In this document: positions 1,752 through 26,550 of the stretch, piece by piece
How positions within the stretch are numbered: the first letter of the stretch is position 1
Layout of the letters: each line of letters opens with the position of its first letter
DNA from: a bacterium
GTDB lineage: Bacteria; UBP6; JAFGXH01
Assembly: GCA_027064085.1 (NCBI GenBank)
Contig: JAMOQH010000157.1
Location: forward strand, 706-64,705
Length of the DNA: 64,000 nt
Reading direction: 5' to 3'
Translations under genes and position numbers: made by a program
Notes under the pieces: generated by a model
Told to the model about the DNA's origin: nothing
What the model saw: the letters and a program-made list of their open reading frames with translations, nothing else
Database searches by the model: none

Positions 1752-4700
1752 TTAATCAAGCTTTATCATTAAACCATCAATAATTTTATTAAAATAATCC
1801 AATGCTTGTTCTAAATTACTAAACTGACTAGTAATTGTTATATCATTTTTTTGACCAAATTTAATATTTGGATATTTATTTAAAAAAGGCATTAAACTAA
1901 CCAAGTCTAGTAAATCCGGGTCGTCTAAAATCATATAAATTATAGCTCTACTAATAGTTATTTTAGATATTTTATATTTCATTGCTCTGATTTTAATTTT
2001 TACTAAATTTAAAAAGTTAATAAGTTCCTCGGGGAACACTCCAAATCTATCTCTTAATTCTTCAGTAATTTCATCAACTTCTGTATCATCTATTGAGTTT
2101 GAAAGAGATTTATAAAATGATAACCTCGTAAATTCATCTTCAATATAAGAAGCCGGAATAAGAGCAGAAAAGGCGGTATTTAATTCTGTTTTGAAATCAA
2201 CAGAAGACTTCTTATCCCCCTTTAGTTCGGCAAGAGCTTCTTTTAGAAAATTCATATAAGTTTCATAGCCAACTTCATCAACATGTCCTTTTTGAGCAAA
2301 ACCGAGTAGAGTTCCTGCTCCTCTAATTTCCATATCTTGTAAAGCTATTTGAAAACCACTTCCCAAATCAGTATATCTTGAAATAACAGATAACCTTCTT
2401 TCGGCAATAGATGTAATTTTTCCTTTTTTAGGTAACTGTAATATGCAATAACCTTGTCTTTCTGCTCTTCCTACTCTACCCCTAAGCTGATATAAAGATG
2501 CTAATCCAAAATTATCAGCTCTATCAATTATCATAGTATTTGCATTTGGTATATCAATCCCTGATTCAATAATATTTGTAGAAAGTAATAAATCAAATTT
2601 TCCATCATAAAACTCCATCATTAACTTTTCTAGTTTTGATTTAGCTAGCTCTGCATGAGCAATTGCAAGTTTGATATTAGGAAAAAGCTCTAATAAGTAA
2701 TCTGCCTCTTGATAAATTGTAGCTATCCTATTGTGAATATAAAAGACTTGCCCCCCTCTATCTAGTTCAAAGGAAATTGCTTCTTTTAATTTTTTAGGAT
2801 TTTTACGAACAACTATAGTTTTTACTGATTTTCTGTTTTTTGGTGGGGTATTTATTATACTTAAATCCCTAATTCCAGAAAGGGAGAAGTTTAAAGTTCT
2901 AGGAATAGGAGTTGCAGTCATAGCGAGAGTATCTATATTTAGTTTTAATTCTCTTAATTTTTCCTTATCTTTTACTCCAAATTTATGCTCTTCATCTATA
3001 ATTAATAAGCCTAGCGATTTGAAATTAACCATTTTAGCTAAAATAGCCTGAGTACCAATTAAAATATCTATTTTTCCTCTTTTTAACTGTTCAAAAATGA
3101 TTTTTTTATCTTTAACAGACTTAAAACTACTAATAAAATTTATTTCTATAGGAAAATTAGAAAACCTTTTTTTAAATGTCAAATAATGCTGAAACGACAA
3201 AACTGTTGTTGGAGCAAGTATTGCAACTTGCTTGTTATCTGCAACAGCCTTAAATGCTGCTCTCATCGCAACTTCAGTTTTTCCAAATCCAACATCTCCA
3301 CAAACAAGCCTATCCATAGGCTTAATATTTTCCATGTCTCCCATAATTTCATTAATTGTTTTTTCTTGATCTACAGTTAAAATATATGGAAACTCTGAAA
3401 CAAAAGCATCATATAACTCATCATTTTGAGTAAAAGCATAACCTCTTGCAGTCATTCTAGAAGCATATAGTTGAATTAGTTCTTTTGCTATTTTTTCTAT
3501 AGACTTTTTAATTCTTCGTTTTCTATTTTCCCAAGCCTTAGACCTAAAACTATCTAACTTAGTAGTAGTTTCACTAGAGCTATGTTTATAGAGTAATGAC
3601 ATATTATAAACAGGAAGAAATAATTTATCACCCTTTGCGTAATCAATTTCTAAAAAATCAGTAATATTTCCATTTATTGTTTTTGAAGAAATGCCTATAT
3701 ATTTCCCTATACCATAATTAGTATGAACAACAAAATCCCCTTTATTTAAATCAGAAAATGAAGAGATTATATTTTTCATTCTTTTAGTTGATGCTGGAGG
3801 CGAATAAACCCCTAAAATCAAATAATCAGATAAAAATATTTCTTCATTTGTCTGAAAAGCATCTTTTAATAACCCTGTTTTCCAAATAATTCCGCTACTT
3901 AACAAATCAAGTTGATTTAATATTTTTTCTATTTTTTGTTTTCTTTCTTCAACAACATAAAAAATAATAACTTTTTTATCCTGTTTTAAATTATCTTCAA
4001 TTAATTTTGATAACCTAAAATATGTTTTAGGTTCTTGTAAGATTATTCTATAGGGTGAAGTTATTTCTGAATTTAATACTATAGTTTGCTTAGTTCCATC
4101 TTGAATAGGAGATATTTGAAATATTTTTTTACTGTTTTTACTATTATTATCTAAAATTGTTTTTAATGTTTTTAAATCATAATATATTTCACTTTTATTA
4201 ACTTTGTATATTTCATCTATTTCCTGAGCAATATTATTTGTATCGTATAAAAAAATATTTTTATACTTCTTTTTAATTAAGGTAAAAACTGTTGTTGGAT
4301 CTTTATAAAAAAATGGAGCATACTCTATTAATTCTTGACTAATATTTTTTTCTTCAATAAGTGATAATAATTTATCTAATTTATCATAAGAAATTATTTC
4401 ATTTTCAAATTCACTATTTATATATTTTTTAAAATTTTCAATATTGTTATCAGTAAAATCAAAGCGAATTGAAGAAATCAGTTTAAAAGACTTAATTTCT
4501 TCTATTGTTGTTTGAAAATCTGCATCAAAAAACCTGATTGATTCTATTTCATCTCCAAAGAGCTCAATTCTTATTGGATTTTGATAATAAGGAACAAAAA
4601 CATCTATTATTCCACCCTTTATTTGAAAACACCCCTTCTCCTCTACGGGAACCTCATATCTATAACCTAAATCCAATAATTTTCTTCTAAAATTATCTAC

Positions 4701-5063
4701 ATTGATTTCTTGTTCTATTTTAATTTCATCATAATCATTTTTGTTTATTTCTGGTATTTTTTTAAAAAGAGCTTCTAGAGTAATTATTGGTATTGAATTT
4801 TCAACAAATATTTTATAAAGACTAGAAGTTTCCTCTATAAATTTTTCGTAATCAAAAAATTGATTATTTTCTAATATATTTTTATATAAAATATTGCTTT
4901 TTTTCTTTATTTTTAAAAATTCAGCAAATAAATCAATTTCAGTTTTTACTTTTTCAGCTACTTTATTACTAGGAACAATAATCGCAAACTTTTTAATCTC
5001 TTTTATATTTTTTAAAAGATAATAAACAGGAGCAGGATTTAATATTGATTGTATATTTCTCAT
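1752..5063 (-). CDS. mfd: transcription-repair coupling factor Mfd
   Basis: 1103 aa. Superfamily-2 helicase core with Walker A 'CGDVGFGKTEVAMRAAF' and 'LLIIDEEHKFGV', plus 'LAMTATPIPRTL'. A CarD/TRCF-type RNAP-interacting region ('FVVHTNYGIGKY') precedes the helicase, and a TRCF C-terminal domain follows. Confidence 0.9.
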   Translation of the reverse strand: MRNIQSILNPAPVYYLLKNIKEIKKFAIIVPSNKVAEKVKTEIDLFAEFLKIKKKSNILYKNILENNQFFDYEKFIEETSSLYKIFVENSIPIITLEALFKKIPEINKNDYDEIKIEQEINVDNFRRKLLDLGYRYEVPVEEKGCFQIKGGIIDVFVPYYQNPIRIELFGDEIESIRFFDADFQTTIEEIKSFKLISSIRFDFTDNNIENFKKYINSEFENEIISYDKLDKLLSLIEEKNISQELIEYAPFFYKDPTTVFTLIKKKYKNIFLYDTNNIAQEIDEIYKVNKSEIYYDLKTLKTILDNNSKNSKKIFQISPIQDGTKQTIVLNSEITSPYRIILQEPKTYFRLSKLIEDNLKQDKKVIIFYVVEERKQKIEKILNQLDLLSSGIIWKTGLLKDAFQTNEEIFLSDYLILGVYSPPASTKRMKNIISSFSDLNKGDFVVHTNYGIGKYIGISSKTINGNITDFLEIDYAKGDKLFLPVYNMSLLYKHSSSETTTKLDSFRSKAWENRKRRIKKSIEKIAKELIQLYASRMTARGYAFTQNDELYDAFVSEFPYILTVDQEKTINEIMGDMENIKPMDRLVCGDVGFGKTEVAMRAAFKAVADNKQVAILAPTTVLSFQHYLTFKKRFSNFPIEINFISSFKSVKDKKIIFEQLKRGKIDILIGTQAILAKMVNFKSLGLLIIDEEHKFGVKDKEKLRELKLNIDTLAMTATPIPRTLNFSLSGIRDLSIINTPPKNRKSVKTIVVRKNPKKLKEAISFELDRGGQVFYIHNRIATIYQEADYLLELFPNIKLAIAHAELAKSKLEKLMMEFYDGKFDLLLSTNIIESGIDIPNANTMIIDRADNFGLASLYQLRGRVGRAERQGYCILQLPKKGKITSIAERRLSVISRYTDLGSGFQIALQDMEIRGAGTLLGFAQKGHVDEVGYETYMNFLKEALAELKGDKKSSVDFKTELNTAFSALIPASYIEDEFTRLSFYKSLSNSIDDTEVDEITEELRDRFGVFPEELINFLNLVKIKIRAMKYKISKITISRAIIYMILDDPDLLDLVSLMPFLNKYPNIKFGQKNDITITSQFSNLEQALDYFNKIIDGLMIKLD

Positions 5064-5097: not shown

Positions 5098-6084
5098 CTA
5101 TTCTTTTTTAATTTTATTTATTTCTCCTTTTGATAATCCTGTTAATTCCATAATTTTATTAATATCTGTTTTAGTATTTATTAATAATTTCACTAAATTT
5201 ACAATTTGTTTTTTAGCTTTTTCCTCTCTCTCAAGAGCTTTTTCTTTTTCTTTTTGAGCTTTTTCTATCTTTTCTTTAGCTTCTTCAAGACCTTTTTGTA
5301 TCCCTTTGTTTTCAGCTGTGCTTAGTACAGCATACCAATCTCGGTATTCCTTTAAACTTGCTAGATATTTGTTTTGGTCTTTTTTATCCATATTTACAAA
5401 TTCTGCTTTATTAAAAGCATCTTTTATCACTTTATCATCATTAAATATCTTGGGAATTTCATTTAGAGAATCTAAATTATTTAAAAAATAAAACCATTTA
5501 TCCAAATATGTATTTAATTCATTTTCTCTTTTGGTAAATTTAGGCATCTCTACAAATACATAATTTAATTTATCGTAAAATACATCATTATTCTGGTCTT
5601 TTAACTTCACATAATGAAGATAATCTTTATTATTGTTTTCTTTAAACTCAAAATCAAGTATTCCTATACAATAAACAGCACTTAGTTTATAGTCCCAACT
5701 CACCTTTCTTGGACTTCCATCTCTTGTTAATGCAGTTCCATCGTAATATAAGCCTTTTAAACCTTGCTCCTGTATTAAAATACTTGAATAATATACCATT
5801 CTATCTTTAAAATAGGTTTGCTCTGCTCTTTGCAATTCTACAAGTATGTGATTATTGTCTTCGTCAAGGCAGTAAATATCAAAAACGGTATTCCTGTCTC
5901 TTTTGCTTAAACCCAGCTTTTCTAAGTTTTTAAACTCTAAATCAACTATTTTAGCCCTATTTTCAAGCTCCAAAAAAGCATTGATAAAAGATATAAGCTG
6001 TGGTTTACTTCCTTCTTCACCAAATAGTTTTTTAAAACCATAATCTGTGAATGGATTTATATATTTTGATGTTAAACACATCAT
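5098..6084 (-). CDS. Rpn-family recombination-promoting nuclease / PD-(D/E)XK putative transposase
   Basis: The N-terminus 'YINPFTDYGFKKLFGEE' is the hallmark of the Rpn/YhgA-like PD-(D/E)XK 'putative transposase' family. A 'DIYCLDEDNNHILVELQ' nuclease-core-like stretch follows. The tail is a Lys/Glu-rich coiled coil. The gene sits 34 bp upstream of mfd on the same strand. Confidence 0.75.
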   Translation of the reverse strand: MMCLTSKYINPFTDYGFKKLFGEEGSKPQLISFINAFLELENRAKIVDLEFKNLEKLGLSKRDRNTVFDIYCLDEDNNHILVELQRAEQTYFKDRMVYYSSILIQEQGLKGLYYDGTALTRDGSPRKVSWDYKLSAVYCIGILDFEFKENNNKDYLHYVKLKDQNNDVFYDKLNYVFVEMPKFTKRENELNTYLDKWFYFLNNLDSLNEIPKIFNDDKVIKDAFNKAEFVNMDKKDQNKYLASLKEYRDWYAVLSTAENKGIQKGLEEAKEKIEKAQKEKEKALEREEKAKKQIVNLVKLLINTKTDINKIMELTGLSKGEINKIKKE

Positions 6085-6745
6085 TCCTCCTCTGGCTCTT
6101 TATGCAATTGCCCTAGTATATTATAACTTATATTTGGGATTATGCAAGATTTTTTATGTGATTTTATTGATGTATTAAATACTTATCAACAACAAAATAG
6201 TAAAGAGGAAAAGAACTACTTAAAACGAGAGTAATTTATCTCTTTTTAAAGAGATATTAGTAGTGTCAGTGGAAGAATACTGTAATTTGCACTATTTTAT
6301 TAGTTGTAACAATAGGTTAGAAAATATATTAAGTTTTATAAAAAAAATATTGAGTCAACTATAAATAATGATTTTATTTTTTAACCCATATTTCCTTTTT
6401 TTATTAAGGAGCATTGTTTTTGTAGTAATAAATGCTGTATTTAGTGGAAGAATTGCAAATAACTCTCTTGCAACTCTTAAAGCAACTCCACAGACATAAT
6501 CTTGATATAATTCATAAAATTTAGCTTTAGTCATATTTTTTTCAGATACCTTTCCACTTTTATTTATAAAAGTTAGCTTATTTTTGTGAAGAAAACACTT
6601 AAAGGTGTTTGATGAACCTTAATAATATTTAAATTTATACTAACGGAATAATAAAACGGTAGAAAATAAACACTTTTCTATAAATTTACTTAAAAAATAA
6701 ATATTAATGTGTTATAATGTTGCTCATTAAAGTTATGGAGGTTTT

Positions 6746-9622
6746 ATGATTTGTCCTAATTGTGGCCATAAAGAAGATTATGATTTTTATATTTGTCCGA
6801 AATGCCAATACGATATTGATGTGGATATCAATAAAGATGACCCCGACTTTGATGATGAACTGGCAAGTGTTTTAGATGAACAAACCAATTATCAAATAGA
6901 TGCTAATGAATTAATGTTTGAGGAAGATACAAGTATCCGATATGATAATAATGTTATAGAAGAACTGGTTGATGATTTAATTGAAGAAAATAAGTCTCAA
7001 CTTGAAGTTAATCAGGTTTTCAACTTACATATTAATGAAAAAGATCTTATTGGTCGAGATGATGAACTAAATAAACTGTTATTATATTTTAAAAAAATAA
7101 GAGAAAATAATTCAGTAGCCTCCTTAACTGTAGTGAGCGAACATGGCCTTGGAAAAACTGATTTAATTTCATTATTTTTAAGAAAAATAAAATCTTCTGA
7201 CTCCACAATTATGATTATAGAAGCAACAGGATTAGGTAACACTAAAAATGAAGATTACTCTATTTTTAAATCAATACTTAAAAAACTAACCCAAATATCT
7301 GATTCTGATATTAGTGATATAAAAAAACAAAAACTAAAAGTTTTTTTAAAAGAATCAACTCCATTTCACCTATACCATGAATTAAAGGTTGTTTTTAGCC
7401 GATTATTAGAAATGAAAACAGAAAAAGATATTGAAGAAATGGATATAATGTCCTATGATAGACTTTTAAAAAGAAGCTTTAGGCAAATATTTAACTATTA
7501 CACATCTCAAAATATTTTTTTAATTTTAGCAATTAAAGATTTTCATAATATTGATATTAGATCTATAGAAATGATTGACTACTTTATGTCTTTACCAAAC
7601 TACAAGAATTTACTCTTTTTATTGACATCAGAATTAGAAGATAAAGTTCAAAGATTTTTAAAAGGAGAACATTCAAAAAGATTTTTTCTAAAGTTATTAC
7701 CCTTGACACAAGAAGATTCTGTAAAATTAGTTAAGCACATATTAAAAGATATTAAAAACTTAGAATTAGAAACTATAGAATTAATTGTAGCAAATACCAA
7801 AGGAACACCACTGCATATAAAAGAAAGCATTAGTTATTTAGTAAATTCAGGTGCAATTATTCAAAAAAACGGAAAATATACTGGAATTAATAAATTAGTA
7901 CTAAAAAGAATTCAGATTCCAATGACTTTTGAAGAAACAATCAGAGCTAAAATAGATAGATTATCTAAATTTGACTACTCTATTTTACAATTAGCATCAA
8001 TATCAGGAGAAATATTTAAATATAGCTATATAAAGTTACTTATAAATATTGATAACCTCGTTGTAAAAGAAGAAAATAAAATAAAATTGTGGAATACTAA
8101 AAATTTAGAAAATAAATTAAGTAAAACATTTGAAAATTTAATTAAAGAAGATGTATTAAAAAAACAAAAAGGGACTCTAAATGATCAAGAATACTTATTT
8201 AGTAATACAGTAGAACAAAAACTCATATATTCTACAATTCCGCCAAGATTAAAAAAAATATATCATGGATATTTAGCTCAATATTTAGAGTCTAAACTTG
8301 ATAAAAAAATGGAAAAAAACTTAGAACAATTATCGCTACAATATAAATTAGCATCAAATACATATCAAGCATCTAAATATTATTTTGTTGCAGCTAAAAA
8401 AGCTGAAGAAAGATATGCAAACCGAAGAGCCATAAAGTATAACTTAGAAGCATTAAACCTTCTTCCTGCTGAAAATGTACTAAACAGGCTTGAGGTATTA
8501 CATAACCTAGGCTCTTTATATACGCTTATTGGTAAAACAGAGGATTCTATAGTAACTTTTGAAGAAATGGTTCAACTTTCACAAATAATACTAAACAACA
8601 ATAAACTTGGAGCTGCATATAATAAGATAGGAAGAATCTATAGAGATATTGGTTCTCATAAAAAATCATCAAACTACCTAACCCTTGCTTACAATAGCTT
8701 TAGGATAGCAAAAGATAGAAGAGGTATTGCATCAACACTTGATGACTTAGGTCGCTTATATTGGCAACAAGGTAAATTTGAAGAGTCTCTAAAAAACTAT
8801 ATGAAATCTCTTGATATAAGAAAAAAACTAAACATGCCTAAGTCAATAGCATTATCATTAAACAATATTGGCTTACTATATTATTCTCAAGGCTTTGTTG
8901 ATGAAGCAGAGGAATATTTATTTGAAGCCTATAAACTAAGAAAACAAATTAAGGACAAACAAGGTGAAATGTCTTCTTTAAATAATCTTGCAATATTAAC
9001 AGATAATAAAGGAGACGACATTGAAGCAAGGGCATTATGGCTTAAATCTTTAACAATTGCAGAAGAAATAGGTGACATAAAATACCAAGCAACTTGTATG
9101 AATAATTTAGGCGGGCTGTTTATTGAAAGCAATAAGTACAATAAGGCACAAGACTATCTGAAAAATGCTTTAGAGATAGCTCTGGAATCCTCTAACAAGA
9201 GAATACTAGGATACATTTACCTTAATTTGGGTGAACTAAACTTAAAGCAACATAAAACATCTAATGCTAAAAAATATCTTGAGAGAGCATTTGAGCTTTC
9301 AGAAGAATCTGGAGATAAACAAGTCGCAGGAAGAGTTTATTGTTTATTTGGAGACATTGAGTCCGCTACACTATTTAATGATAATGGTGGTGATGGAGTT
9401 GCTCCAGCTGAAGATTATTACCTAAGAAGCTTAGATTTACTAAGAAAGGTATCTGAACCTTTAATGGCTGCAACAAATATCTCATATGCAGAATACTTAT
9501 TAAGCAAAGGCAAAAAAGGCAAAGCTAAAAAATTATTAAATCAAGCAGAAAATATATATCAAAATTACAATATGCAACTTAAATTATCTAAAATAAGAAG
9601 ATTAAAAAAAGATATACTATAG
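6746..9622 (+). CDS. zinc-ribbon + AAA_16 (STAND-like) P-loop NTPase + TPR-repeat signalling protein
   Basis: 958 aa. N-terminal double Cys pair 'CPNCGH...CPKCQY' (zinc ribbon), then an acidic linker. The AAA_16-type pattern 'LIGRDDELNKLLLYFKKIRENNSVASLTVVSEHGLGKTDLISLF' matches 'GRExEL...GExGxGKT'. The C-terminal ~400 aa read as tandem TPR-like repeats (e.g. 'LDDLGRLYWQQGKFEESLKNYMKSLDI', 'LNNIGLLYYSQGFVDEAEEYLFEAYKL'). A GGAGG-like RBS lies upstream. Confidence 0.6.
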   Translation: MICPNCGHKEDYDFYICPKCQYDIDVDINKDDPDFDDELASVLDEQTNYQIDANELMFEEDTSIRYDNNVIEELVDDLIEENKSQLEVNQVFNLHINEKDLIGRDDELNKLLLYFKKIRENNSVASLTVVSEHGLGKTDLISLFLRKIKSSDSTIMIIEATGLGNTKNEDYSIFKSILKKLTQISDSDISDIKKQKLKVFLKESTPFHLYHELKVVFSRLLEMKTEKDIEEMDIMSYDRLLKRSFRQIFNYYTSQNIFLILAIKDFHNIDIRSIEMIDYFMSLPNYKNLLFLLTSELEDKVQRFLKGEHSKRFFLKLLPLTQEDSVKLVKHILKDIKNLELETIELIVANTKGTPLHIKESISYLVNSGAIIQKNGKYTGINKLVLKRIQIPMTFEETIRAKIDRLSKFDYSILQLASISGEIFKYSYIKLLINIDNLVVKEENKIKLWNTKNLENKLSKTFENLIKEDVLKKQKGTLNDQEYLFSNTVEQKLIYSTIPPRLKKIYHGYLAQYLESKLDKKMEKNLEQLSLQYKLASNTYQASKYYFVAAKKAEERYANRRAIKYNLEALNLLPAENVLNRLEVLHNLGSLYTLIGKTEDSIVTFEEMVQLSQIILNNNKLGAAYNKIGRIYRDIGSHKKSSNYLTLAYNSFRIAKDRRGIASTLDDLGRLYWQQGKFEESLKNYMKSLDIRKKLNMPKSIALSLNNIGLLYYSQGFVDEAEEYLFEAYKLRKQIKDKQGEMSSLNNLAILTDNKGDDIEARALWLKSLTIAEEIGDIKYQATCMNNLGGLFIESNKYNKAQDYLKNALEIALESSNKRILGYIYLNLGELNLKQHKTSNAKKYLERAFELSEESGDKQVAGRVYCLFGDIESATLFNDNGGDGVAPAEDYYLRSLDLLRKVSEPLMAATNISYAEYLLSKGKKGKAKKLLNQAENIYQNYNMQLKLSKIRRLKKDIL

Positions 9623-9632
9623 GAGTAAATAA

Positions 9633-10370
9633 ATGCAAATATTAATAGGGACAGATAATCCAACATTTAGTCTAAAAAAATACACAGAACAATTTAATTT
9701 TTTAGAATATGGGGATACGTATAAAGCTTTTGTAAAAAAGAAAACTCTTTTAAATATAAGAAAAAAAGCTGGAGACAATTTTTCCTTTTCATTAAAAGCT
9801 CCATTATTTATTGCAGAAGACCAAGAAACAATAAAAAGATTTTCATCAAATGTTCCACTGCTAAACAAAGAAAGCTTAAGCAACTATGGATTATTCAAAA
9901 AAACGCAAGAAAATCAAAAACTTACAGAAATACTTATACAGGAAATTGAAAATTTAGATGCAGATGCTACAATTTTTTATACTTCTAACAAATTTCAACC
10001 TACCAAAGAAAACATTAAAAATATAAATCAATACTTTAAAGATTTAGGCTCATATCTAAAAAAAGATGACAGGGACCTATTTTGGACCCCTTTAGGTTTT
10101 TGGTCTCCAGATATCATTATGGAAGCATTAAAAGATACATCGGTTATTCCAGCTTATGATCCGCTCATAGATGAAATAGAAATAAACTCTCTTGTTAATT
10201 ATTTTGTAATGAGAGGACTAGGAAGATACTCAAAAGGATACTCTGATTCTGCTCTTGAAAACCTAGCCGAAATTATTTTCAATAAAGGCGTTGATACCTA
10301 TGTTGTTTTTCAAGGAACATATCAAGTTTCAAATGCAAAAAGATTCAACGAAATTATAAAATATTGGTAA
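9633..10370 (+). CDS. DUF72 (YecE-like) family protein
   Basis: 245 aa. 'ILIGTDNPTF...YTEQFNFLEYGDTYKAF...NFSFSLKAPLFI' parallels the YecE pattern 'IGLPQW...FNCVEGNTTLYALP...FRFCFKFPATI'. It starts 10 bp after the NTPase gene. Confidence 0.55.
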   Translation: MQILIGTDNPTFSLKKYTEQFNFLEYGDTYKAFVKKKTLLNIRKKAGDNFSFSLKAPLFIAEDQETIKRFSSNVPLLNKESLSNYGLFKKTQENQKLTEILIQEIENLDADATIFYTSNKFQPTKENIKNINQYFKDLGSYLKKDDRDLFWTPLGFWSPDIIMEALKDTSVIPAYDPLIDEIEINSLVNYFVMRGLGRYSKGYSDSALENLAEIIFNKGVDTYVVFQGTYQVSNAKRFNEIIKYW

Positions 10371-10374
10371 TAAT

Positions 10375-10860
10375 ATGAAAACAGCATTTACCTTACTTGA
10401 AGTTACAATTATAACAATGATTGTTGCTTTTTTAGTTATATCTACAAATTTTTTTAATAAGGAAATAGTTTCCAATAACATAAAAGGAGCTCAATTATCC
10501 TTAATGAAGTTATATAAAGCAGAGAAGCTGTACTTTAAAGAAAACAAAAAATACACAGATAATTTAGAAAAAATTTGGAAATATCAAAAAAGAATACCGG
10601 AATACCCTGTAACAATTGTAGATTTCAGAAAAAGAAGTTTGCATAAAGAAAAAGAACCTATCCTGCACTTCAGGATTGACCACTACTACATCGATATAAA
10701 AACCTCTGACAACAATCAAAAATTTAAAATAATTGCAAAGGTTCCTACTGCAGATAAACGCTCTAAAGAACTTCCAGTATTTACAATAAATAATGATAAA
10801 GAGAAAATGCCTAAAAGTAAAAATTTATGGTTAATAAATACTCAAAATGATGATGAATAA
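10375..10860 (+). CDS. prepilin-type N-terminal cleavage/methylation domain protein (type IV minor pilin / pseudopilin-like)
   Basis: The N-terminus 'MKTAFTLLEVTIITMIVAFLVIS' carries the FTLLE N-methylation motif plus a hydrophobic helix. Ala rather than Gly sits at -1. The protein is 161 aa and lies 4 bp after the DUF72 gene. Confidence 0.6.
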   Translation: MKTAFTLLEVTIITMIVAFLVISTNFFNKEIVSNNIKGAQLSLMKLYKAEKLYFKENKKYTDNLEKIWKYQKRIPEYPVTIVDFRKRSLHKEKEPILHFRIDHYYIDIKTSDNNQKFKIIAKVPTADKRSKELPVFTINNDKEKMPKSKNLWLINTQNDDE

Positions 10861-12025
10861 TACTTATGCTGTAGTAATTACAGTAAAAAAAAATATAATC
10901 TATAATTATAAATTATTAATAACAGTTTTATTAATAATGCTTTTAACTCAATTTATATATATTATTGTACTGAAAATAAAAAGAAAGAAGCGTAAAAAAA
11001 ACCTAAATAAGTTTGAAGACTTATCATCAATTCTTATACCATTAAATCAAAAAATAAACACTCTAAAGGAAGATAAAAAAAATTATATAACAACCTTATC
11101 AGAAATACAAGAAGAAATAAAATTATATAGCGAAGAAATACTTAATATTATAGAAACAGGTGTTTTATTACTTGATAAGGATAGTAATGTTATATATCAA
11201 AATAACTGGTTTAAAGAAAACAATATTAACAATTTATCTTTAATAACTAAAATTAAGGATAATAATACTGAAAAAGAAATAAATAATAATTTTTTTTTAA
11301 TTAAAAATAAAAAATATGAAAACATGTCTGTTTATACAATTAATGATATAACAGAAATAAAAAAACTAGAACAAGAAATTCAGATAAAAGAAAAACTAGC
11401 TTATTTAGGAGAAATGTCCGCTTCAATAGCTCATGAATTTAAAAATTCTCTTACAGCGATAAAAGGATTTGCCTCTGCTCTAAGAAGAAAATCAGATAAC
11501 CCAGCAATCGTTAAAAATGTTTCAGCAAACATAGAAGAAGAAGTTGATTATTTCCATAAAATACTAATTGATTACTTAAATTATTCTAAAGAAATAAGCT
11601 TAATAAAAGAAAATATAAATGTTAAATCTTTTTTTAATGAAATAATTTCAAAGATTTTTAATGATTCAAATATCACAATAACTACACATATTAAAAATAT
11701 TTATGCAGATAAAGACAAATTAAAACAGGTTTTTATAAATTTAATAAAAAACTCTGTGGAAGCATCAGACAATTCATCTTTGATCGAAATAGAAATAGAA
11801 AATATTGATAAAATGACAAAAATTTTAATAAAAGATAAAGGAACCGGCATTACTGAAGAAAATATGAAAAAAATATACAATCCTTTTTTTACTACTAAAT
11901 CCACCGGTACCGGCTTAGGCACATCTATTTCTTATCAAATTATAAAAGCCCATAAAGGAACATTAGAGTACAAAAACAGACCCCATAAAGGAACAATTAC
12001 AATTGTTAACATTCCAAATTCTTAA
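10847..12025 (+). CDS. sensor histidine kinase (single TM, PAS-like, HisKA + HATPase_c)
   Basis: TM helix 'LLITVLLIMLLTQFIYIIVL'. H-box 'SASIAHEFKNSLTAIKGFASAL'. N/G boxes 'LIKNSVEA', 'DKGTGITEENMKKIYNPFFTTK', 'GTGLGTSISYQIIKAH'. It overlaps the pilin-like gene by 14 nt. Confidence 0.8.
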   Translation: MMMNNTYAVVITVKKNIIYNYKLLITVLLIMLLTQFIYIIVLKIKRKKRKKNLNKFEDLSSILIPLNQKINTLKEDKKNYITTLSEIQEEIKLYSEEILNIIETGVLLLDKDSNVIYQNNWFKENNINNLSLITKIKDNNTEKEINNNFFLIKNKKYENMSVYTINDITEIKKLEQEIQIKEKLAYLGEMSASIAHEFKNSLTAIKGFASALRRKSDNPAIVKNVSANIEEEVDYFHKILIDYLNYSKEISLIKENINVKSFFNEIISKIFNDSNITITTHIKNIYADKDKLKQVFINLIKNSVEASDNSSLIEIEIENIDKMTKILIKDKGTGITEENMKKIYNPFFTTKSTGTGLGTSISYQIIKAHKGTLEYKNRPHKGTITIVNIPNS

Positions 12026-12381
12026 ATACTAATATCTTTTAAAAATTGTTTCAAAAGGAGTGTCTTGAAAAGACCAAATTCTAATTTATTAGGGTCTAAT
12101 ATAATCGTGAAGTTAAAGTCTGGATTTAATTTACCTGTATAAAAAACCTTATTATCGAAAACGATAGCAAAACTCTTTAAAGAATCTGAAAAATTAAACA
12201 TATTTAAAGAGTTAAAAAACGATTTAAACAAATTATTAGATACACTTGATATTCCATAATCTATATTACTTCCAGTAATAACTAAATCATCTTCACTTGA
12301 ATAAACTCCAACCGACACAATTCCATCATTAGAATTTTTTACCATGGTTGAAATAGCTTTATTCATTTTATCAATATCCAT
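12022..12381 (-). CDS. small hypothetical protein, possibly roadblock/LC7-like
   Basis: 119 aa. 'GIVSVGVYSSEDDLVITGSNIDYG' loosely resembles the roadblock/LC7 (MglB-like) core. It is the last gene of a three-gene minus-strand operon and shares a TTAA stop overlap with the convergent kinase gene. Confidence 0.3.
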   Translation of the reverse strand: MDIDKMNKAISTMVKNSNDGIVSVGVYSSEDDLVITGSNIDYGISSVSNNLFKSFFNSLNMFNFSDSLKSFAIVFDNKVFYTGKLNPDFNFTIILDPNKLEFGLFKTLLLKQFLKDISI

Positions 12382-12388
12382 AATACCT

Positions 12389-12799
12389 CTATATCTTATC
12401 TTTAAAAAATTCCTTATACTTCATATCTGACTTCAAAATATGATTTATTATCCATTCTCTTAAAAAATCAAGTAACTTAATGACCTCTATCATTGTTATG
12501 CCTTTTTTATATGCATCTATAGCTTCAACAACAGTGTTTAGAAACTTTTCATGTTCAACATGTTGTAAAGCTAAGTGGTGATAGTTATACTTTTCCATCA
12601 TCTTTTCTTCTGCCTTAAAGTGATATACGGTATATTTTGCTAATTCATTAAAAATAATCTCTATATGCTTTTTATTATTAGTACTATCAACAACAGAATG
12701 CAGTAAGTTTAATAAATCAACAAGCCTTTTATGATGGGTATTAAAAAGTTCAACTCCAACATTAAATTTATCTTTGTCCCATTTTATAATTAAGCCCAT
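12389..12799 (-). CDS. bacteriohemerythrin-like (hemerythrin HHE cation-binding domain) protein
   Basis: 136 aa. Iron-ligand pattern 'FNTHHKRLVDLL...HFKAEEKMMEKYNYHHLALQHVEHEKF...HILKSD' fits the H..HHE...H...H...D motif of hemerythrins. Confidence 0.7.
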   Translation of the reverse strand: MGLIIKWDKDKFNVGVELFNTHHKRLVDLLNLLHSVVDSTNNKKHIEIIFNELAKYTVYHFKAEEKMMEKYNYHHLALQHVEHEKFLNTVVEAIDAYKKGITMIEVIKLLDFLREWIINHILKSDMKYKEFFKDKI

Positions 12800-13452
12800 T
12801 ATACTCCTATCTCGCCCTTAATAACAGATATAAATTTAGGATATATCGCATTTAAAAACATCCCTACCCCTAATTTTTTTAAATCAATAAGAAAACTAAA
12901 CGAAATCTCAGTATTCTTAATATCACCTAACACCAAAGCTACATCTTCTGATATTTCAAAATATACATATTTAAATTCACTTTCAGAAACATTCATCAAG
13001 CTAAACTTTGAACGAAGTTCTTGATATACAGAGTAATAAACATCAGTTGCAAATGTATTTTGATTATATCCAGAAATAAGAGTCCCATCATTCTTCTTAA
13101 ATAATTCAATAAAAAAGATTCCCCTTCCAAAATCATCTTTAAAATCCATAATTAAGTTATTAAGCTTTAATATATTTAATTTAATATTATTGTTTTTATT
13201 CTCAAAAATAGTTTTTAAATGTCTGATTGCATTTTTATGAGATTTTTCCATAATATCTTTATATACTAAATCTTCTTTTTTAGTATAAACATTTTTGTTG
13301 CTCCAAACGACCTCACCTTCTTGAAAGACCTGAGAAACAACAACATTTACTTTTTTCCTATTAATGAACTCTGTCTGTATATGATAAATTACATCTTGAA
13401 TATTAATATTGTGATTTAATAACTGCATCTGAACCTTTAAAAACATAAACAA
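12799..13452 (-). CDS. hypothetical protein (first gene of the hemerythrin operon)
   Basis: 217-aa ORF whose stop overlaps the hemerythrin start (ATGA). No recognisable motif. Confidence 0.4.
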   Translation of the reverse strand: MFMFLKVQMQLLNHNINIQDVIYHIQTEFINRKKVNVVVSQVFQEGEVVWSNKNVYTKKEDLVYKDIMEKSHKNAIRHLKTIFENKNNNIKLNILKLNNLIMDFKDDFGRGIFFIELFKKNDGTLISGYNQNTFATDVYYSVYQELRSKFSLMNVSESEFKYVYFEISEDVALVLGDIKNTEISFSFLIDLKKLGVGMFLNAIYPKFISVIKGEIGV

Positions 13453-14636: not shown

Positions 14637-15731
14637 ATGTTCTTAAAAAACATCAAAATCAATAATTTTAGAAATATTCAAAACGAAGACATTAACTTTT
14701 CTAAAAACATTAATATAATATACGGAGATAATGGTAATGGAAAAACAAATCTTCTAGAATCTATTTACTACACAACATCTCTCAAGCCTATTAAAAAAAA
14801 ACACAAATTAATTCATTTAATAAATGAAAACAGTAAAGCTTCAATAATTAAATCTACTTTTGAAAATAACGACTATAAAGAGATTATAAAAATAGCAATA
14901 ACACCAGAAAAGAAAGCTTTAATTTATAATCAAAATAACAATACAAATATTCAATCATATCTCCACAAATTCAAATCGGTTCTTTTTACACCTGATGATT
15001 TAATGATAATAAAAGGAGAACCACAAAAAAGGAGAGATTTCTTCAACAAAGCAATATTTCATTTAAATCAATATTATTACAGCAATCTTATAGAATACAA
15101 CAAAATATTAAAAACAAGAAATAAGATTTTAAAAGATATAGCAGAAGGAGATAAAAGGCAATTAGCAATACTTGAAATAATCAATGAACAATTTACAGAT
15201 ATTTCATTAAAAATATATCAAAATAGAATTAACTACCTAATAAACTATATTCCAATCTTAATAAATACAGTAAATCAATTATCAAAAAAAGATTTTTTAC
15301 CATATTTAATATACAAAACAGATTTTAACTATAAAAATAGAGATGACTTCTTAAGTAAATTAAAGTCAAAACAAAAAAGAGAAATATTATACAAAAGAAC
15401 ATTAACTGGCCCCCACTTTGATGATTATAAAATAATTACCAATGATAAAGAAATAAAATTCTTTGGTAGCCAAGGAGAAATAAGACTTTTTACACTAGCC
15501 ATGAAAATTGCTCATATAATATATGTCAAAGAAACAACAAATAATTACCCTATATTATTATTAGACGACATCTCAAGTGAACTAGACAGTAATAGAAAAG
15601 AGTTTTTATTTAACTTTCTCAAAACAATTGACTCACAAATATTTATAACAACAACTGCCATTAATCATATACCTAAGCTAGAAAACATGGACTTCCTCGA
15701 AATAAAAAATGGAAAAACTAATTGGAAATGA
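14637..15731 (+). CDS. recF: DNA replication and repair protein RecF
   Basis: N-terminus 'FLKNIKINNFRNIQNEDINF...IIYGDNGNGKTNLLESIYY' (RecF Walker A). 364 aa. SMC-like C-terminus 'LLLDDISSELDSNRKEFL' (D-loop / Walker B region). Confidence 0.85.
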   Translation: MFLKNIKINNFRNIQNEDINFSKNINIIYGDNGNGKTNLLESIYYTTSLKPIKKKHKLIHLINENSKASIIKSTFENNDYKEIIKIAITPEKKALIYNQNNNTNIQSYLHKFKSVLFTPDDLMIIKGEPQKRRDFFNKAIFHLNQYYYSNLIEYNKILKTRNKILKDIAEGDKRQLAILEIINEQFTDISLKIYQNRINYLINYIPILINTVNQLSKKDFLPYLIYKTDFNYKNRDDFLSKLKSKQKREILYKRTLTGPHFDDYKIITNDKEIKFFGSQGEIRLFTLAMKIAHIIYVKETTNNYPILLLDDISSELDSNRKEFLFNFLKTIDSQIFITTTAINHIPKLENMDFLEIKNGKTNWK

Positions 15732-24246: not shown

Positions 24247-26550
24247 CTATTTTTCTAGTTTTCTTGCTTTAATTTTAACTGCTCTGTTTGAATCAGTGAA
24301 AATCAAATAGGAGTTACCCTTTTTAATGATTTTCCATATATCTTTGTTTTTTAATTTTCTGTTTTTAAATACTTTTAAAGTATTAGCATTTTTATCAAAA
24401 ATAATTAATCCATCATTTTGAGTACCAAGAAATATTTTATTATTTGAATAATTTAATGCTGTTACAAAATTTCTTTTAATTTTAGAAACATAAAGAATAT
24501 AGGATTTATTTGTATTTCTATCGTATGCCGTTACAATACCTTTATAATGAGCTCTATAAACAACATTATTGGCAGTAATTGTTGCAATTATAGGATGAAT
24601 ACCTTTTGCAACAAATTTACTATCTTGGTCACCATTATACATTCTGAGTCTTAATTGTAATTCTCTGTTTTTATTTAAAAAACCATTATCTCTAACCCAT
24701 AATTGAACAGCATCCTTAGGATCATTCTGAGAAATTTCTCTTGGCTTTTTAACAAATCCAAATTTAAAAATCATTCTTTTAAACCATGGCTTTAAATTGT
24801 TAGGTGTATTTTTTGTAAATTTAAATTCAACTTCAGGATCAAAATCACCAATTGCTTCACCCATTCTAGCATAAGCTGTATAAGTCTTTTTGTTCCCTAC
24901 TGAATATAAATTTAAAAGATTATAAGCTTTTCTTTTATCAACAGTAGTATAATAAATATCCTTTAAATTATCTTTCTGAACATCTTCCATACCATTAAAA
25001 TTCATAGCCATTTTTACTCTTTTAAGCTTTATATTGCTCTTTAAATTAACTCTCCATGAATAATTTTGGTTTACTAAAATATATAATTTTCTTGTTGTAA
25101 TTACAGCAATTTTTATTTGATTATTTTCTTTGTAAACAAAAACATTTACTATAGTTTCATTTCTTCTTAATCTTACATTATTATTAAAAATATTTCTAGC
25201 TTCCTGATTATTTGGCATTTTCACAATAATAGCTTTTTTATAAACTCTTACTTTTGTAACAGAGCTATCATATCTTTCATGTGCACCATTTACAGAAAAG
25301 TTTATATGTGTTGATTTATTGGTTTTTCTTACATCAGATAATCTTAAAGTTTTCATAGCACCTTTATAAGTTAATTTCCAAGTGCCATTTCTGTATCTTT
25401 CATGAGCTGCAATATAATTTACAGGACCATATACTTGTTGAAATATAATTTCGTATCCCTTAAAGTCATTTATGGAAATACCACAGTAGTTTCCACCAGT
25501 TCGGTATCCACCTTTTCCATTTGTAGTGATATCACACAAATAAATGTAGCTTCCACCAAGCATTGGCTTATCTTCTTTTGGTGCTTGAACAATGACAGTA
25601 TCATTAATTCCTAGTTTTTTTTTCATCCATTTATGAAATTTACCATTAATTTTTAAATTTCCTGATTTTGTTAAGCTACCATTAGTTTTTTTCATTAATA
25701 AATAGAAACTATATTTTCCTTGCTTAGGTTTTGTATTTACAACAGATAAAACTTTATTGCCTGCATTATTTTTTACCATATAGTAAAAATCACCAAATCC
25801 ATTTCCTTTAACATCATACATACCTACACTATTTAAAATAAGTTGATATCTATTTTTTAATTTTTTATTAAAAAACTTTTTGTATGAGTTACCATTATTT
25901 AAAAATAAATATGCTTTTGAAGATGTTAATGCAAATAAGAATTTACTTCCATTTTGATTTGTATAAAAACCTGCTCTTAATACTTTTCCATCAACTAATC
26001 CTTCAGCTATTTTAACTGCATTTGGTTTAACTAATTGTAAAGGAGGTCTTTTAGATGTTTTATTTACAACATTAACATTTTGATTTAAATGTTTAACTTT
26101 ATTTGTCATCCATTTATGAAATTTTCCATTGACTTGTAAGTTTCCAGATTTAACAACAGAGCCATTATTTCTTAAGGCCACTATATAAAAACTATATTTT
26201 CCTTTTTTGGGTCTTGTATTAACAACATATAGTGTTTTTTTATTATTAGATTTTGTTGCATACCATAAATCTAAAGAACCATTTTTATCTATATCGGTAA
26301 GGCCTGCAGATCTAAACAATGGTGTTTCAGTATTTTTAAAAGTTTTTGCAAAAAACTTATTAAAATTAGAACCGTGTTTAATGAATAAGTAGGCTCCACT
26401 AGAAGTAATTGCAAATAGCTTTTGACTTCCATCACTTGCATAAGAAGCAGCTAGAACTTTACCATTTGTTAAGTTTTTAGCTTGATTCATAGCATTATTA
26501 CCAAGAATTGTTAAGCTAAACATCAACATAAACAACAATAATTTACTCAT
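24247..26550 (-). CDS. large secreted protein with internal tandem duplication, hypothetical
   Basis: 767 aa with a signal peptide. Two ~145-aa direct repeats, e.g. '...LYVVNTRPKKGKYSFYIVALRNNGSVVKSGNLQVNGKFHKWMTNK' versus '...LSVVNTKPKQGKYSFYLLMKKTNGSLTKSGNLKINGKFHKWMKKK'. The C-terminal half carries beta-propeller-like repeats. Confidence 0.5.
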   Translation of the reverse strand: MSKLLLFMLMFSLTILGNNAMNQAKNLTNGKVLAASYASDGSQKLFAITSSGAYLFIKHGSNFNKFFAKTFKNTETPLFRSAGLTDIDKNGSLDLWYATKSNNKKTLYVVNTRPKKGKYSFYIVALRNNGSVVKSGNLQVNGKFHKWMTNKVKHLNQNVNVVNKTSKRPPLQLVKPNAVKIAEGLVDGKVLRAGFYTNQNGSKFLFALTSSKAYLFLNNGNSYKKFFNKKLKNRYQLILNSVGMYDVKGNGFGDFYYMVKNNAGNKVLSVVNTKPKQGKYSFYLLMKKTNGSLTKSGNLKINGKFHKWMKKKLGINDTVIVQAPKEDKPMLGGSYIYLCDITTNGKGGYRTGGNYCGISINDFKGYEIIFQQVYGPVNYIAAHERYRNGTWKLTYKGAMKTLRLSDVRKTNKSTHINFSVNGAHERYDSSVTKVRVYKKAIIVKMPNNQEARNIFNNNVRLRRNETIVNVFVYKENNQIKIAVITTRKLYILVNQNYSWRVNLKSNIKLKRVKMAMNFNGMEDVQKDNLKDIYYTTVDKRKAYNLLNLYSVGNKKTYTAYARMGEAIGDFDPEVEFKFTKNTPNNLKPWFKRMIFKFGFVKKPREISQNDPKDAVQLWVRDNGFLNKNRELQLRLRMYNGDQDSKFVAKGIHPIIATITANNVVYRAHYKGIVTAYDRNTNKSYILYVSKIKRNFVTALNYSNNKIFLGTQNDGLIIFDKNANTLKVFKNRKLKNKDIWKIIKKGNSYLIFTDSNRAVKIKARKLEK

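Follow-up and report, generated by a model that had tools for sequence, protein, structure and literature searches.

We examined a 64,000-nucleotide stretch of a bacterial contig (JAMOQH010000157.1, positions 706 to 64,705; assembly GCA_027064085.1; hereafter the window) that contains a block of four genes encoding a STAND NTPase, a DUF72 protein, a pilin-like protein and a sensor histidine kinase of 958, 245, 161 and 392 amino acids, respectively (Table 1). An open reading frame scan places all four on the plus strand, with 10 bp between the first two genes, 4 bp between the second and third, and a 14-bp overlap between the third and fourth. Upstream of the block, mfd and a gene of the Rpn family both lie on the minus strand, the latter divergent from gene 1 at a distance of 661 bp. 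A first-pass annotation made from the letters of the sequence had described four co-directional genes with this spacing, and the coordinates agree with it exactly. It had also suggested that the genes probably form an operon, which is plausible from their spacing; no terminator-like site was found on the plus strand within the block. The promoter-like site 5' of gene 1 falls in 67 bp that are conserved in a related locus (L005, described below). However, promoter-like sites in general show no enrichment compared with shuffled sequence.

Table 1. Positions in the window of the block, its sequence features and the genes upstream
Feature	Coordinates	Strand	Remarks
mfd	1752-5063	-	
Indel segment	5064-6679		Rpn/PDDEXK_2 gene and most of the 661-bp spacer; outside the putative operon
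Rpn gene	5098-6084	-	PF12784
Promoter-like site	6690-6718	+	TTAAAA, 17-nt spacer, TG-extended TATAAT; consensus match only
Ribosome-binding site	6737-6741	+	GGAGG, 5' of gene 1
Gene 1, STAND NTPase	6746-9622	+	958 aa
Gene 1, zinc ribbon	6746-6817	+	residues 1-24; four Cys (C3, C6, C17, C20)
Gene 1, acidic linker	6818-7042	+	residues 25-99; predicted disordered, poorly conserved
Gene 1, MalT-like STAND module	7043-8425	+	residues 100-560; P-loop NOD, helical, winged-helix
Gene 1, Walker A	7136-7159	+	residues 131-138, SEHGLGKT; intact, fits GxxxxGK[ST]
Gene 1, degenerate Walker B	7520-7540	+	residues 259-265, LILAIKD; K264 in place of first acidic residue
Gene 1, TPR array	8426-9622	+	residues 561-958; TPR_12, TPR_MalT
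Gene 2, divergent DUF72/YecE-family TIM barrel	9633-10370	+	245 aa; Pfam PF01904
Gene 3, prepilin-like N-terminus	10375-10860	+	161 aa; MKTA/FTLLE and hydrophobic helix
Gene 4, sensor histidine kinase	10847-12025	+	392 aa; HisKA and HATPase_c

Domain structure and family of the NTPase

The gene 1 protein has the zinc ribbon, AAA_16 P-loop and TPR architecture proposed for it in the first-pass annotation; Pfam matches, predicted fold and invariant cysteines all agree. Pfam identifies TPR_12 (1e-43, in five stretches) and TPR_MalT, and AAA_16 is matched at residues 101-291 with 32.4 bits, 0.2 below the cutoff of 32.6. PF13191 (AAA_16) is also listed for P0001 in the precomputed annotation of the collection. 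We uphold the AAA_16 assignment because all 41 of the relatives scanned (below) carry this domain and because of the predicted fold. The NOD, helical and winged-helix domains follow one another in the order that defines STAND proteins.

The zinc ribbon has the form CPNC-x10-CPKC. All four cysteines are invariant across nine orthologues, as are 71% of the columns in this region. Its Pfam matches, to zinc-ribbon and DZR families, are all below threshold, and DZR or Zn_Ribbon_1 occurs at the equivalent position in relatives. The linker that follows is strongly acidic, with 24 aspartate and glutamate residues versus 4 lysine and arginine residues in 75 positions. Only 9% of its columns are invariant, and the predicted local distance difference test score (pLDDT) is below 50 over residues 26-88. 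Residues 1-99 consist of this ribbon and linker, in line with the earlier remark that no obvious N-terminal effector is present.

A word-indexed search with the gene 1 protein added eight full-length orthologues, which are 53-90% identical to it. The other proteins that it returned were all multidomain signalling proteins in which AAA_16 and TPR are combined with cyclase, kinase, histidine kinase or zinc-ribbon domains; TPR-histidine-kinase fusions (P0010, P0022) are among the weaker matches. We also ran an exhaustive HMMER search from which the TPRs were left out; with residues 1-560 as the query it yielded 8371 relatives at E<=1e-3. The 41 best non-orthologous relatives of residues 100-560 were scanned with Pfam. 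AAA_16 is present in 41/41, a class III nucleotidyl cyclase (Guanylate_cyc) in 28/41, DZR in nine, Zn_Ribbon_1 in four and Pkinase in three. The top NCBIfam model for the gene 1 protein is the ATPase region of a TOMM kinase/cyclase fusion. As its closest relatives carry cyclase, kinase and zinc-ribbon domains, the protein is, by sequence, a MalT-like STAND of the cyclase/kinase-associated AAA_16-TPR signalling family.

Cyclase-fused members of this family include the mycobacterial proteins of the Rv0386/Rv2488c type. NCBIfam TOMM_kin_cyc is a further example of the cyclase/kinase-fused kin, and cyclase-ATPase(-TPR)-HTH architectures, ending in a helix-turn-helix (HTH) domain, have been described (bioRxiv 10.1101/2024.03.06.583649). 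Like gene 1, these proteins have TPRs behind a NOD, helical and winged-helix module, and the modules are homologous. However, their identity to it is only ~21-29%, they have glutamate or aspartate where gene 1 has a lysine in Walker B, and the gene 1 protein carries only a zinc ribbon in place of a cyclase, kinase or HTH. The DZR-AAA_16-TPR proteins P0063, P0070 and P0075 (~930-975 aa) match it in both architecture and length, and several proteins of this kind likewise lack the sensor-1 arginine. They differ in that their zinc ribbon is double instead of single and their Walker B is canonical (ED or DD; DN in P0075). These uncharacterised proteins form an outgroup to the nine-member gene 1 orthogroup.

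Nucleotide-binding motifs and regional conservation

Within the intact Walker A motif, residues G134, G136 and K137 are invariant in the orthologues. The Walker B motif does not fit the pattern hhhh[D/E]D in any member of the orthogroup. A profile alignment places Lys264 at the first acidic position in 9/9 orthologues, followed by D, N or H. We compared this with the 149 best relatives: of the 148 that could be aligned there, 147 carry E or D at the first position, and 145 have D at the second. Lys264 is the last residue of a predicted strand (258-264), which is where Walker B residues sit. The sensor-1 arginine that is present in many relatives was not seen in the orthogroup in the same profile alignment. 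With Walker A intact, the NOD is expected to bind nucleotide; as the first acidic residue of Walker B is a lysine and no sensor-1 arginine is evident, hydrolysis is probably impaired, and the protein probably serves as a scaffold or a slow switch.

We computed identities between lineages of the orthogroup separately for each region. Conservation peaks in the zinc ribbon (79-88%), followed by the TPR array (61-68%), the NOD (51-57%) and the helical/winged-helix part (43-45%), while the acidic linker shows 32-49%. A conserved TPR array is the opposite of the pattern expected of a sensor that tracks fast-evolving phage proteins, and the most likely binding partner of the TPRs is a conserved one within the cell.

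The DUF72 protein and its association with the NTPase

Gene 2 matches PF01904 with 49.3 bits (cutoff 25.3; 8e-13) over profile positions 10-215 of 217. A phmmer search against the sequences in the PDB did not retrieve any DUF72 structure, and a profile of the gene 2 orthogroup reaches 1vpq only at E=0.15. Confirming the family required a search by fold. An AlphaFold2 model (pLDDT 79) has the DUF72/YecE structures 1vpq, 1vpy and 1ztv as its top Foldseek matches (E=1.6e-7 to 6.5e-6, TM-scores 0.47-0.60), and xylose-isomerase-like barrels come next. Gene 2 therefore shares the TIM-barrel fold of the solved DUF72 proteins, as had been predicted. However, it is very divergent from them, with 14% identity.

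Orthologues of gene 2 fall in eleven clusters at 51-94% identity, and those at 51-56% adjoin orthologues of the NTPase in loci L009, L025 and L027. We distinguish six lineages. The two genes are adjacent in lineage A (the window, L005, L019 and L020) and in lineage B (L009/L010 and L025/L026), where they are separated by 35 bp. In lineage F (L027, a 1.2-kb contig) a C-terminal fragment of the NTPase ends 7 bp before DUF72. Lineage C (GCA_974325845.1) has both genes on different contigs, the NTPase beside fliK/flgD-like genes and DUF72 beside genes with mlaD and PilZ domains. No DUF72 gene was found in the ~7.4 kb between the NTPase and the contig end in lineage D (L007), or in the ~10 kb downstream of the NTPase in lineage E (L003). 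In a neighbour-joining tree lineages C, D and E form a clade, and B is either basal (66% bootstrap) or sister to A (34%). Either one gain or one loss explains the distribution on these alternatives, so the tree allows the DUF72 adjacency to be ancestral or a single gain.

The NTPase-DUF72 pair is the sole adjacency common to lineages A and B; all other neighbours differ, a pattern often seen with genes that are transcribed together. A functional link between the two proteins is plausible, with moderate support from this pattern. The link is not obligatory: other lineages separate the genes, and the coupling is clearly dispensable. The earlier proposal that the NTPase could have a separately encoded DUF72 partner finds some support in the adjacency in A, B and F, which is broken in C and not seen in D and E. 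The first-pass annotation had also named an outcome that would refute its reading, in which the NTPase clusters with MalT, LuxR or cyclase-associated families and has no linkage to DUF72. The clustering was found, and three of the six lineages lack the linkage.

The pilin-like protein and the histidine kinase

Gene 3 has Ala instead of Gly before FTLLE, as first noted, and retains the Glu at +5 and the hydrophobic helix. Its orthologue in L019 has MKKAFTLLE, likewise with Ala, and that in L005 has the canonical MKKG/FTLLE. No Pfam match, including N_methyl, was obtained even at E<=10, and the NCBIfam model PilA_Myxo is matched weakly (E=0.0037, 17 bits versus a cutoff of 400). The designation of the protein as pilin-like is tentative and draws on its N-terminal motif and hydrophobic helix.

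The sensor kinase call for gene 4 is borne out by HisKA (39.4 bits versus 26.9; 6e-10) and HATPase_c (77 bits versus 26.4; 2e-21), with SIAHEFKNSL as its H-box. The protein is predicted to be anchored in the membrane by one N-terminal hydrophobic segment, with a cytoplasmic region and almost no extracytoplasmic part. It resembles AtoS (8e-55) and ZraS (8e-42) in NCBIfam, both below cutoff. No response regulator gene adjoins gene 4.

Both the pilin-like gene and the histidine kinase gene are confined to lineage A. In lineage B, DUF72 is followed by a Hanks-type Ser/Thr kinase (Pkinase in L009 and L025) and then by a protein with a 3'-5' exonuclease domain. Since proteins related to the NTPase module frequently carry a fused kinase or cyclase as their output, a separately encoded kinase is, by analogy, a reasonable candidate for the output partner of the NTPase.

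Genomic context

The gene upstream of the block matches PF12784 (PDDEXK_2/Rpn) with 204.4 bits (cutoff 27.4) and TIGR01784 with 95.5 bits (cutoff 52.1), and it is single-copy in the window. The first-pass annotation had pointed to this adjacent Rpn gene, which is indeed present though divergent and 661 bp away, and to an AT-rich spacer of 660 bp as hints that the block may be accessory. The spacer has a GC content of 24.1%, compared with 26.4% for the window, and is not notably AT-rich; the block itself is at 0.262 versus 0.264. These values, close to that of the window, led us to reject a compositionally foreign origin for either the block or the spacer.

In L005, whose NTPase is 90% identical, a secreted redoxin/AhpC-like gene (L005 9231-9935) stands in the place of the Rpn gene. 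In blastn the two loci are homologous up to the end of mfd (~5064) and then again from 6679, which is 67 bp 5' of the NTPase gene. Because of this break, and because a redoxin gene is found there instead, we regard the Rpn gene and most of the spacer as a local indel beside the cluster. The 661-bp spacer holds no convincing remnant of a redoxin gene, and a search for terminal repeats flanking the Rpn gene gave no clear candidates. L005 retains the same four genes, without the Rpn gene, between mfd and the same downstream set. In both loci this set comprises genes for a 119-aa protein, a hemerythrin, a 217-aa protein, a PEGA protein, a recF-like protein and an EPSP_synthase-family (murA-like) protein. 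The remainder of the window is housekeeping in character, with S41 peptidase, folD, recF, an EPSP_synthase-family (murA-like) gene, a DEAD-box helicase, rpoN and glgB. Orthologues of the NTPase at 53-57% identity adjoin obg/L21/L27, fliK/flgD and other chromosomal genes.

Proteins identical to those of the block occur only in metagenome assemblies. The Mfd protein of the window is 87, 80 and 60% identical to three proteins from metagenome-assembled genomes (MAGs) and, outside four close MAG relatives, at most ~47% identical to proteins elsewhere (35-47% across mixed phyla). The NTPase is conserved at a level comparable to Mfd. Since Mfd is at most ~47% identical to that of named organisms of unrelated phyla, we take the host to belong to a deeply branching bacterial lineage that is uncultured and has a low GC content (26-29%).

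The block is probably a vertically inherited chromosomal cluster, and neither accessory, mobile nor part of a defence system. Presence of the block between the same housekeeping genes, which the first-pass annotation had named as an outcome that would speak against an accessory origin, is largely what we found in L005. It had proposed defence-system predictors as a check; PADLOC, applied to five proteins, matched a single generic TPR model (PDLC01169), apart from noise below threshold for the histidine kinase. Viral contigs scanned with an alignment of the orthologues contained no relatives. In plasmids, tblastn found only ~21% identical matches, on Sinorhizobium megaplasmids. The patchy, island-associated distribution of a defence locus is not seen: L005 has the same flanks, orthologues lie at housekeeping loci, and the GC content is normal.

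A variable region does lie nearby, on the opposite side of mfd from the block. There, L005 (1-5910) carries genes for a type ISP/IIG restriction-modification enzyme, RhuM, WYL and PBECR3 and resembles a defence island; the window has an S41 peptidase gene and folD (65-1747) in place of these defence-like genes.

Proposed function of the NTPase

We propose that gene 1 encodes a conserved, lineage-specific signalling STAND protein in a cluster that varies beyond its DUF72 neighbour, and would assign this reading a probability of about 0.65. The TPR array would form the input end of the protein, binding a conserved endogenous partner or ligand, and the zinc ribbon on its flexible acidic linker would form the output end. 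The NOD would bind nucleotide through Walker A and hydrolyse it poorly or not at all, which would make the protein a scaffold stabilised by nucleotide, or a slow switch, and not a cycling ATPase. Its output would be exerted via separately encoded proteins, for which the co-oriented downstream kinases (histidine kinase in lineage A, Hanks-type in lineage B) are candidates. The DUF72 gene is probably co-transcribed with it, and the DUF72 protein may be a partner or a client.

Several points weigh against this proposal. The operon is inferred from spacing alone, and closely spaced genes on one strand are frequent in compact genomes. The loss of hydrolysis is likewise inferred from sequence only, and Asp265, kept in 7/9 orthologues, might partly substitute for the missing acidic residue. 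The histidine kinase of lineage A and the Ser/Thr kinase of lineage B come from different superfamilies, and their presence near the NTPase could be a coincidence; neither a kinase nor DUF72 adjoins the NTPase in lineages C, D and E. In addition, the comparison covers about six lineages, mostly represented by fragmentary MAG contigs. Scans of genomes and metagenomes with back-translated patterns from the N-terminal zinc ribbon added few loci (two orthologous genome loci and three metagenome loci).

It is possible, though we consider it unlikely, that the NTPase and DUF72 form a dedicated module in which the STAND/TPR protein serves a housekeeping process by specifically regulating or scaffolding a DUF72 enzyme, and to which the kinase and pilin-like genes are incidental. 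The short gaps (10, 35 and 7 bp) kept in lineages A, B and F while other neighbours differ would fit such a module, as would the parallel divergence of the two proteins. Between A and B the NTPase is 53% and DUF72 55% identical, both genes of lineage F are closest to those of lineage B, and both genes are also present in the lineage C assembly. However, in that assembly they have unrelated neighbours on different contigs, and DUF72 is missing downstream of the NTPase in L003 and L007 over the distances given above. A single ancestral adjacency and a single gain both fit the tree. Furthermore, DUF72 and STAND proteins are not documented as partners, either physically or functionally, and no paper assigning a function to the DUF72/YecE family came up in a literature search.

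A transcription regulator of the MalT type appears improbable. The zinc ribbon would here replace the HTH as an output that binds DNA or RNA polymerase, and the protein may then control the downstream genes. MalT (E. coli maltose regulon activator; PDB 8bob) is the best match of the gene 1 protein among solved structures, at 12% identity. MalT itself has a LuxR-type HTH output, SUPR repeats rather than repeats of the TPR_12 type, and a functional Walker B. The zinc ribbon, as the most conserved segment of the protein, is matched weakly by ribbons associated with nucleic acids, of the TFIIB, NrdR and Cas12f TNB types. However, all of these matches are generic and sub-threshold, and the Pfam scan found no HTH or other DNA-binding domain. 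The closest relatives are cyclase or kinase fusions and not LuxR/HTH fusions, and the strongly acidic linker disfavours DNA binding.

The accessory antiviral STAND with a DUF72 effector that was first suggested is not supported, and we consider very remote the idea that the TPRs sense a phage protein and that DUF72 is a nuclease effector in an accessory island beside the Rpn gene. Some features would fit this idea. Avs/AVAST proteins likewise combine a STAND NTPase with a C-terminal TPR-like sensor; the fold of DUF72 falls in the xylose-isomerase-like TIM-barrel group, which also contains endonuclease IV; the Rpn gene is adjacent; and a type ISP restriction enzyme, RhuM and WYL lie beyond mfd in L005. 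However, gene 1 differs from the Avs/AVAST proteins in having no N-terminal enzymatic effector, no match to a defence model other than the generic TPR one, a conserved rather than fast-evolving sensor, a core-gene distribution and signalling proteins as its relatives.

Neighbouring genes

Three genes of the downstream set in the window are on the minus strand and convergent with the kinase gene. The 217-aa protein (12799-13452) has a match below threshold to the RomY N-terminal model NF053858 (E=8e-9, 35.8 bits versus a cutoff of 50); in Myxococcus, RomY regulates MglA/MglB motility polarity. This gene is followed by those for the hemerythrin (12389-12799) and the 119-aa protein (12022-12381), which has no assigned family, and the trio is kept in L005. 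Further along, a 767-aa open reading frame (24247-26550, minus strand) has no Pfam family on record and is conserved in an identical ENA contig.

The recF gene of the window (14637-15731, plus strand) lies 2.6 kb downstream of the block, and in lineage B gyrB (L009 17581-20127) lies ~4 kb downstream of the NTPase-DUF72 pair. These placements may represent residual dnaA-dnaN-recF-gyrB synteny. The cumulative GC skew of the window has its minimum near 17.5 kb, but the skew tracks the coding strand.

In lineage D the gene directly downstream of the NTPase (L007 12994-15459) encodes an 821-aa protein with a major-vault-protein shoulder, Vault_3 and SPFH/Band_7, which is an uncommon architecture in bacteria. 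The source of this locus (L007/L012, DYRY01000013.1) is a MAG titled Anaeromyxobacter dehalogenans. Anaeromyxobacter is a high-GC genus. The label looks wrong, as the locus has a GC content of 28.5% and carries an NTPase orthologue of the low-GC lineage.

Implications

This analysis removes a candidate defence locus, and places gene 1 with the abundant but poorly studied AAA_16-TPR NTPases that are associated with cyclases and kinases. The orthogroup-specific lysine at the acidic position of Walker B suggests a natural pseudo-ATPase within the STAND proteins, and the recurrent adjacency of NTPase and DUF72 genes is one of few comparative hints to the context of the DUF72 family. A bolder combination, which we regard as rather doubtful, is that the STAND protein with its inactivated Walker B and the divergent DUF72 protein form an ancient, co-inherited module that feeds a downstream kinase. 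If true, this would provide the first regulatory and functional context for DUF72/YecE and an example of a pseudo-ATPase STAND scaffold.

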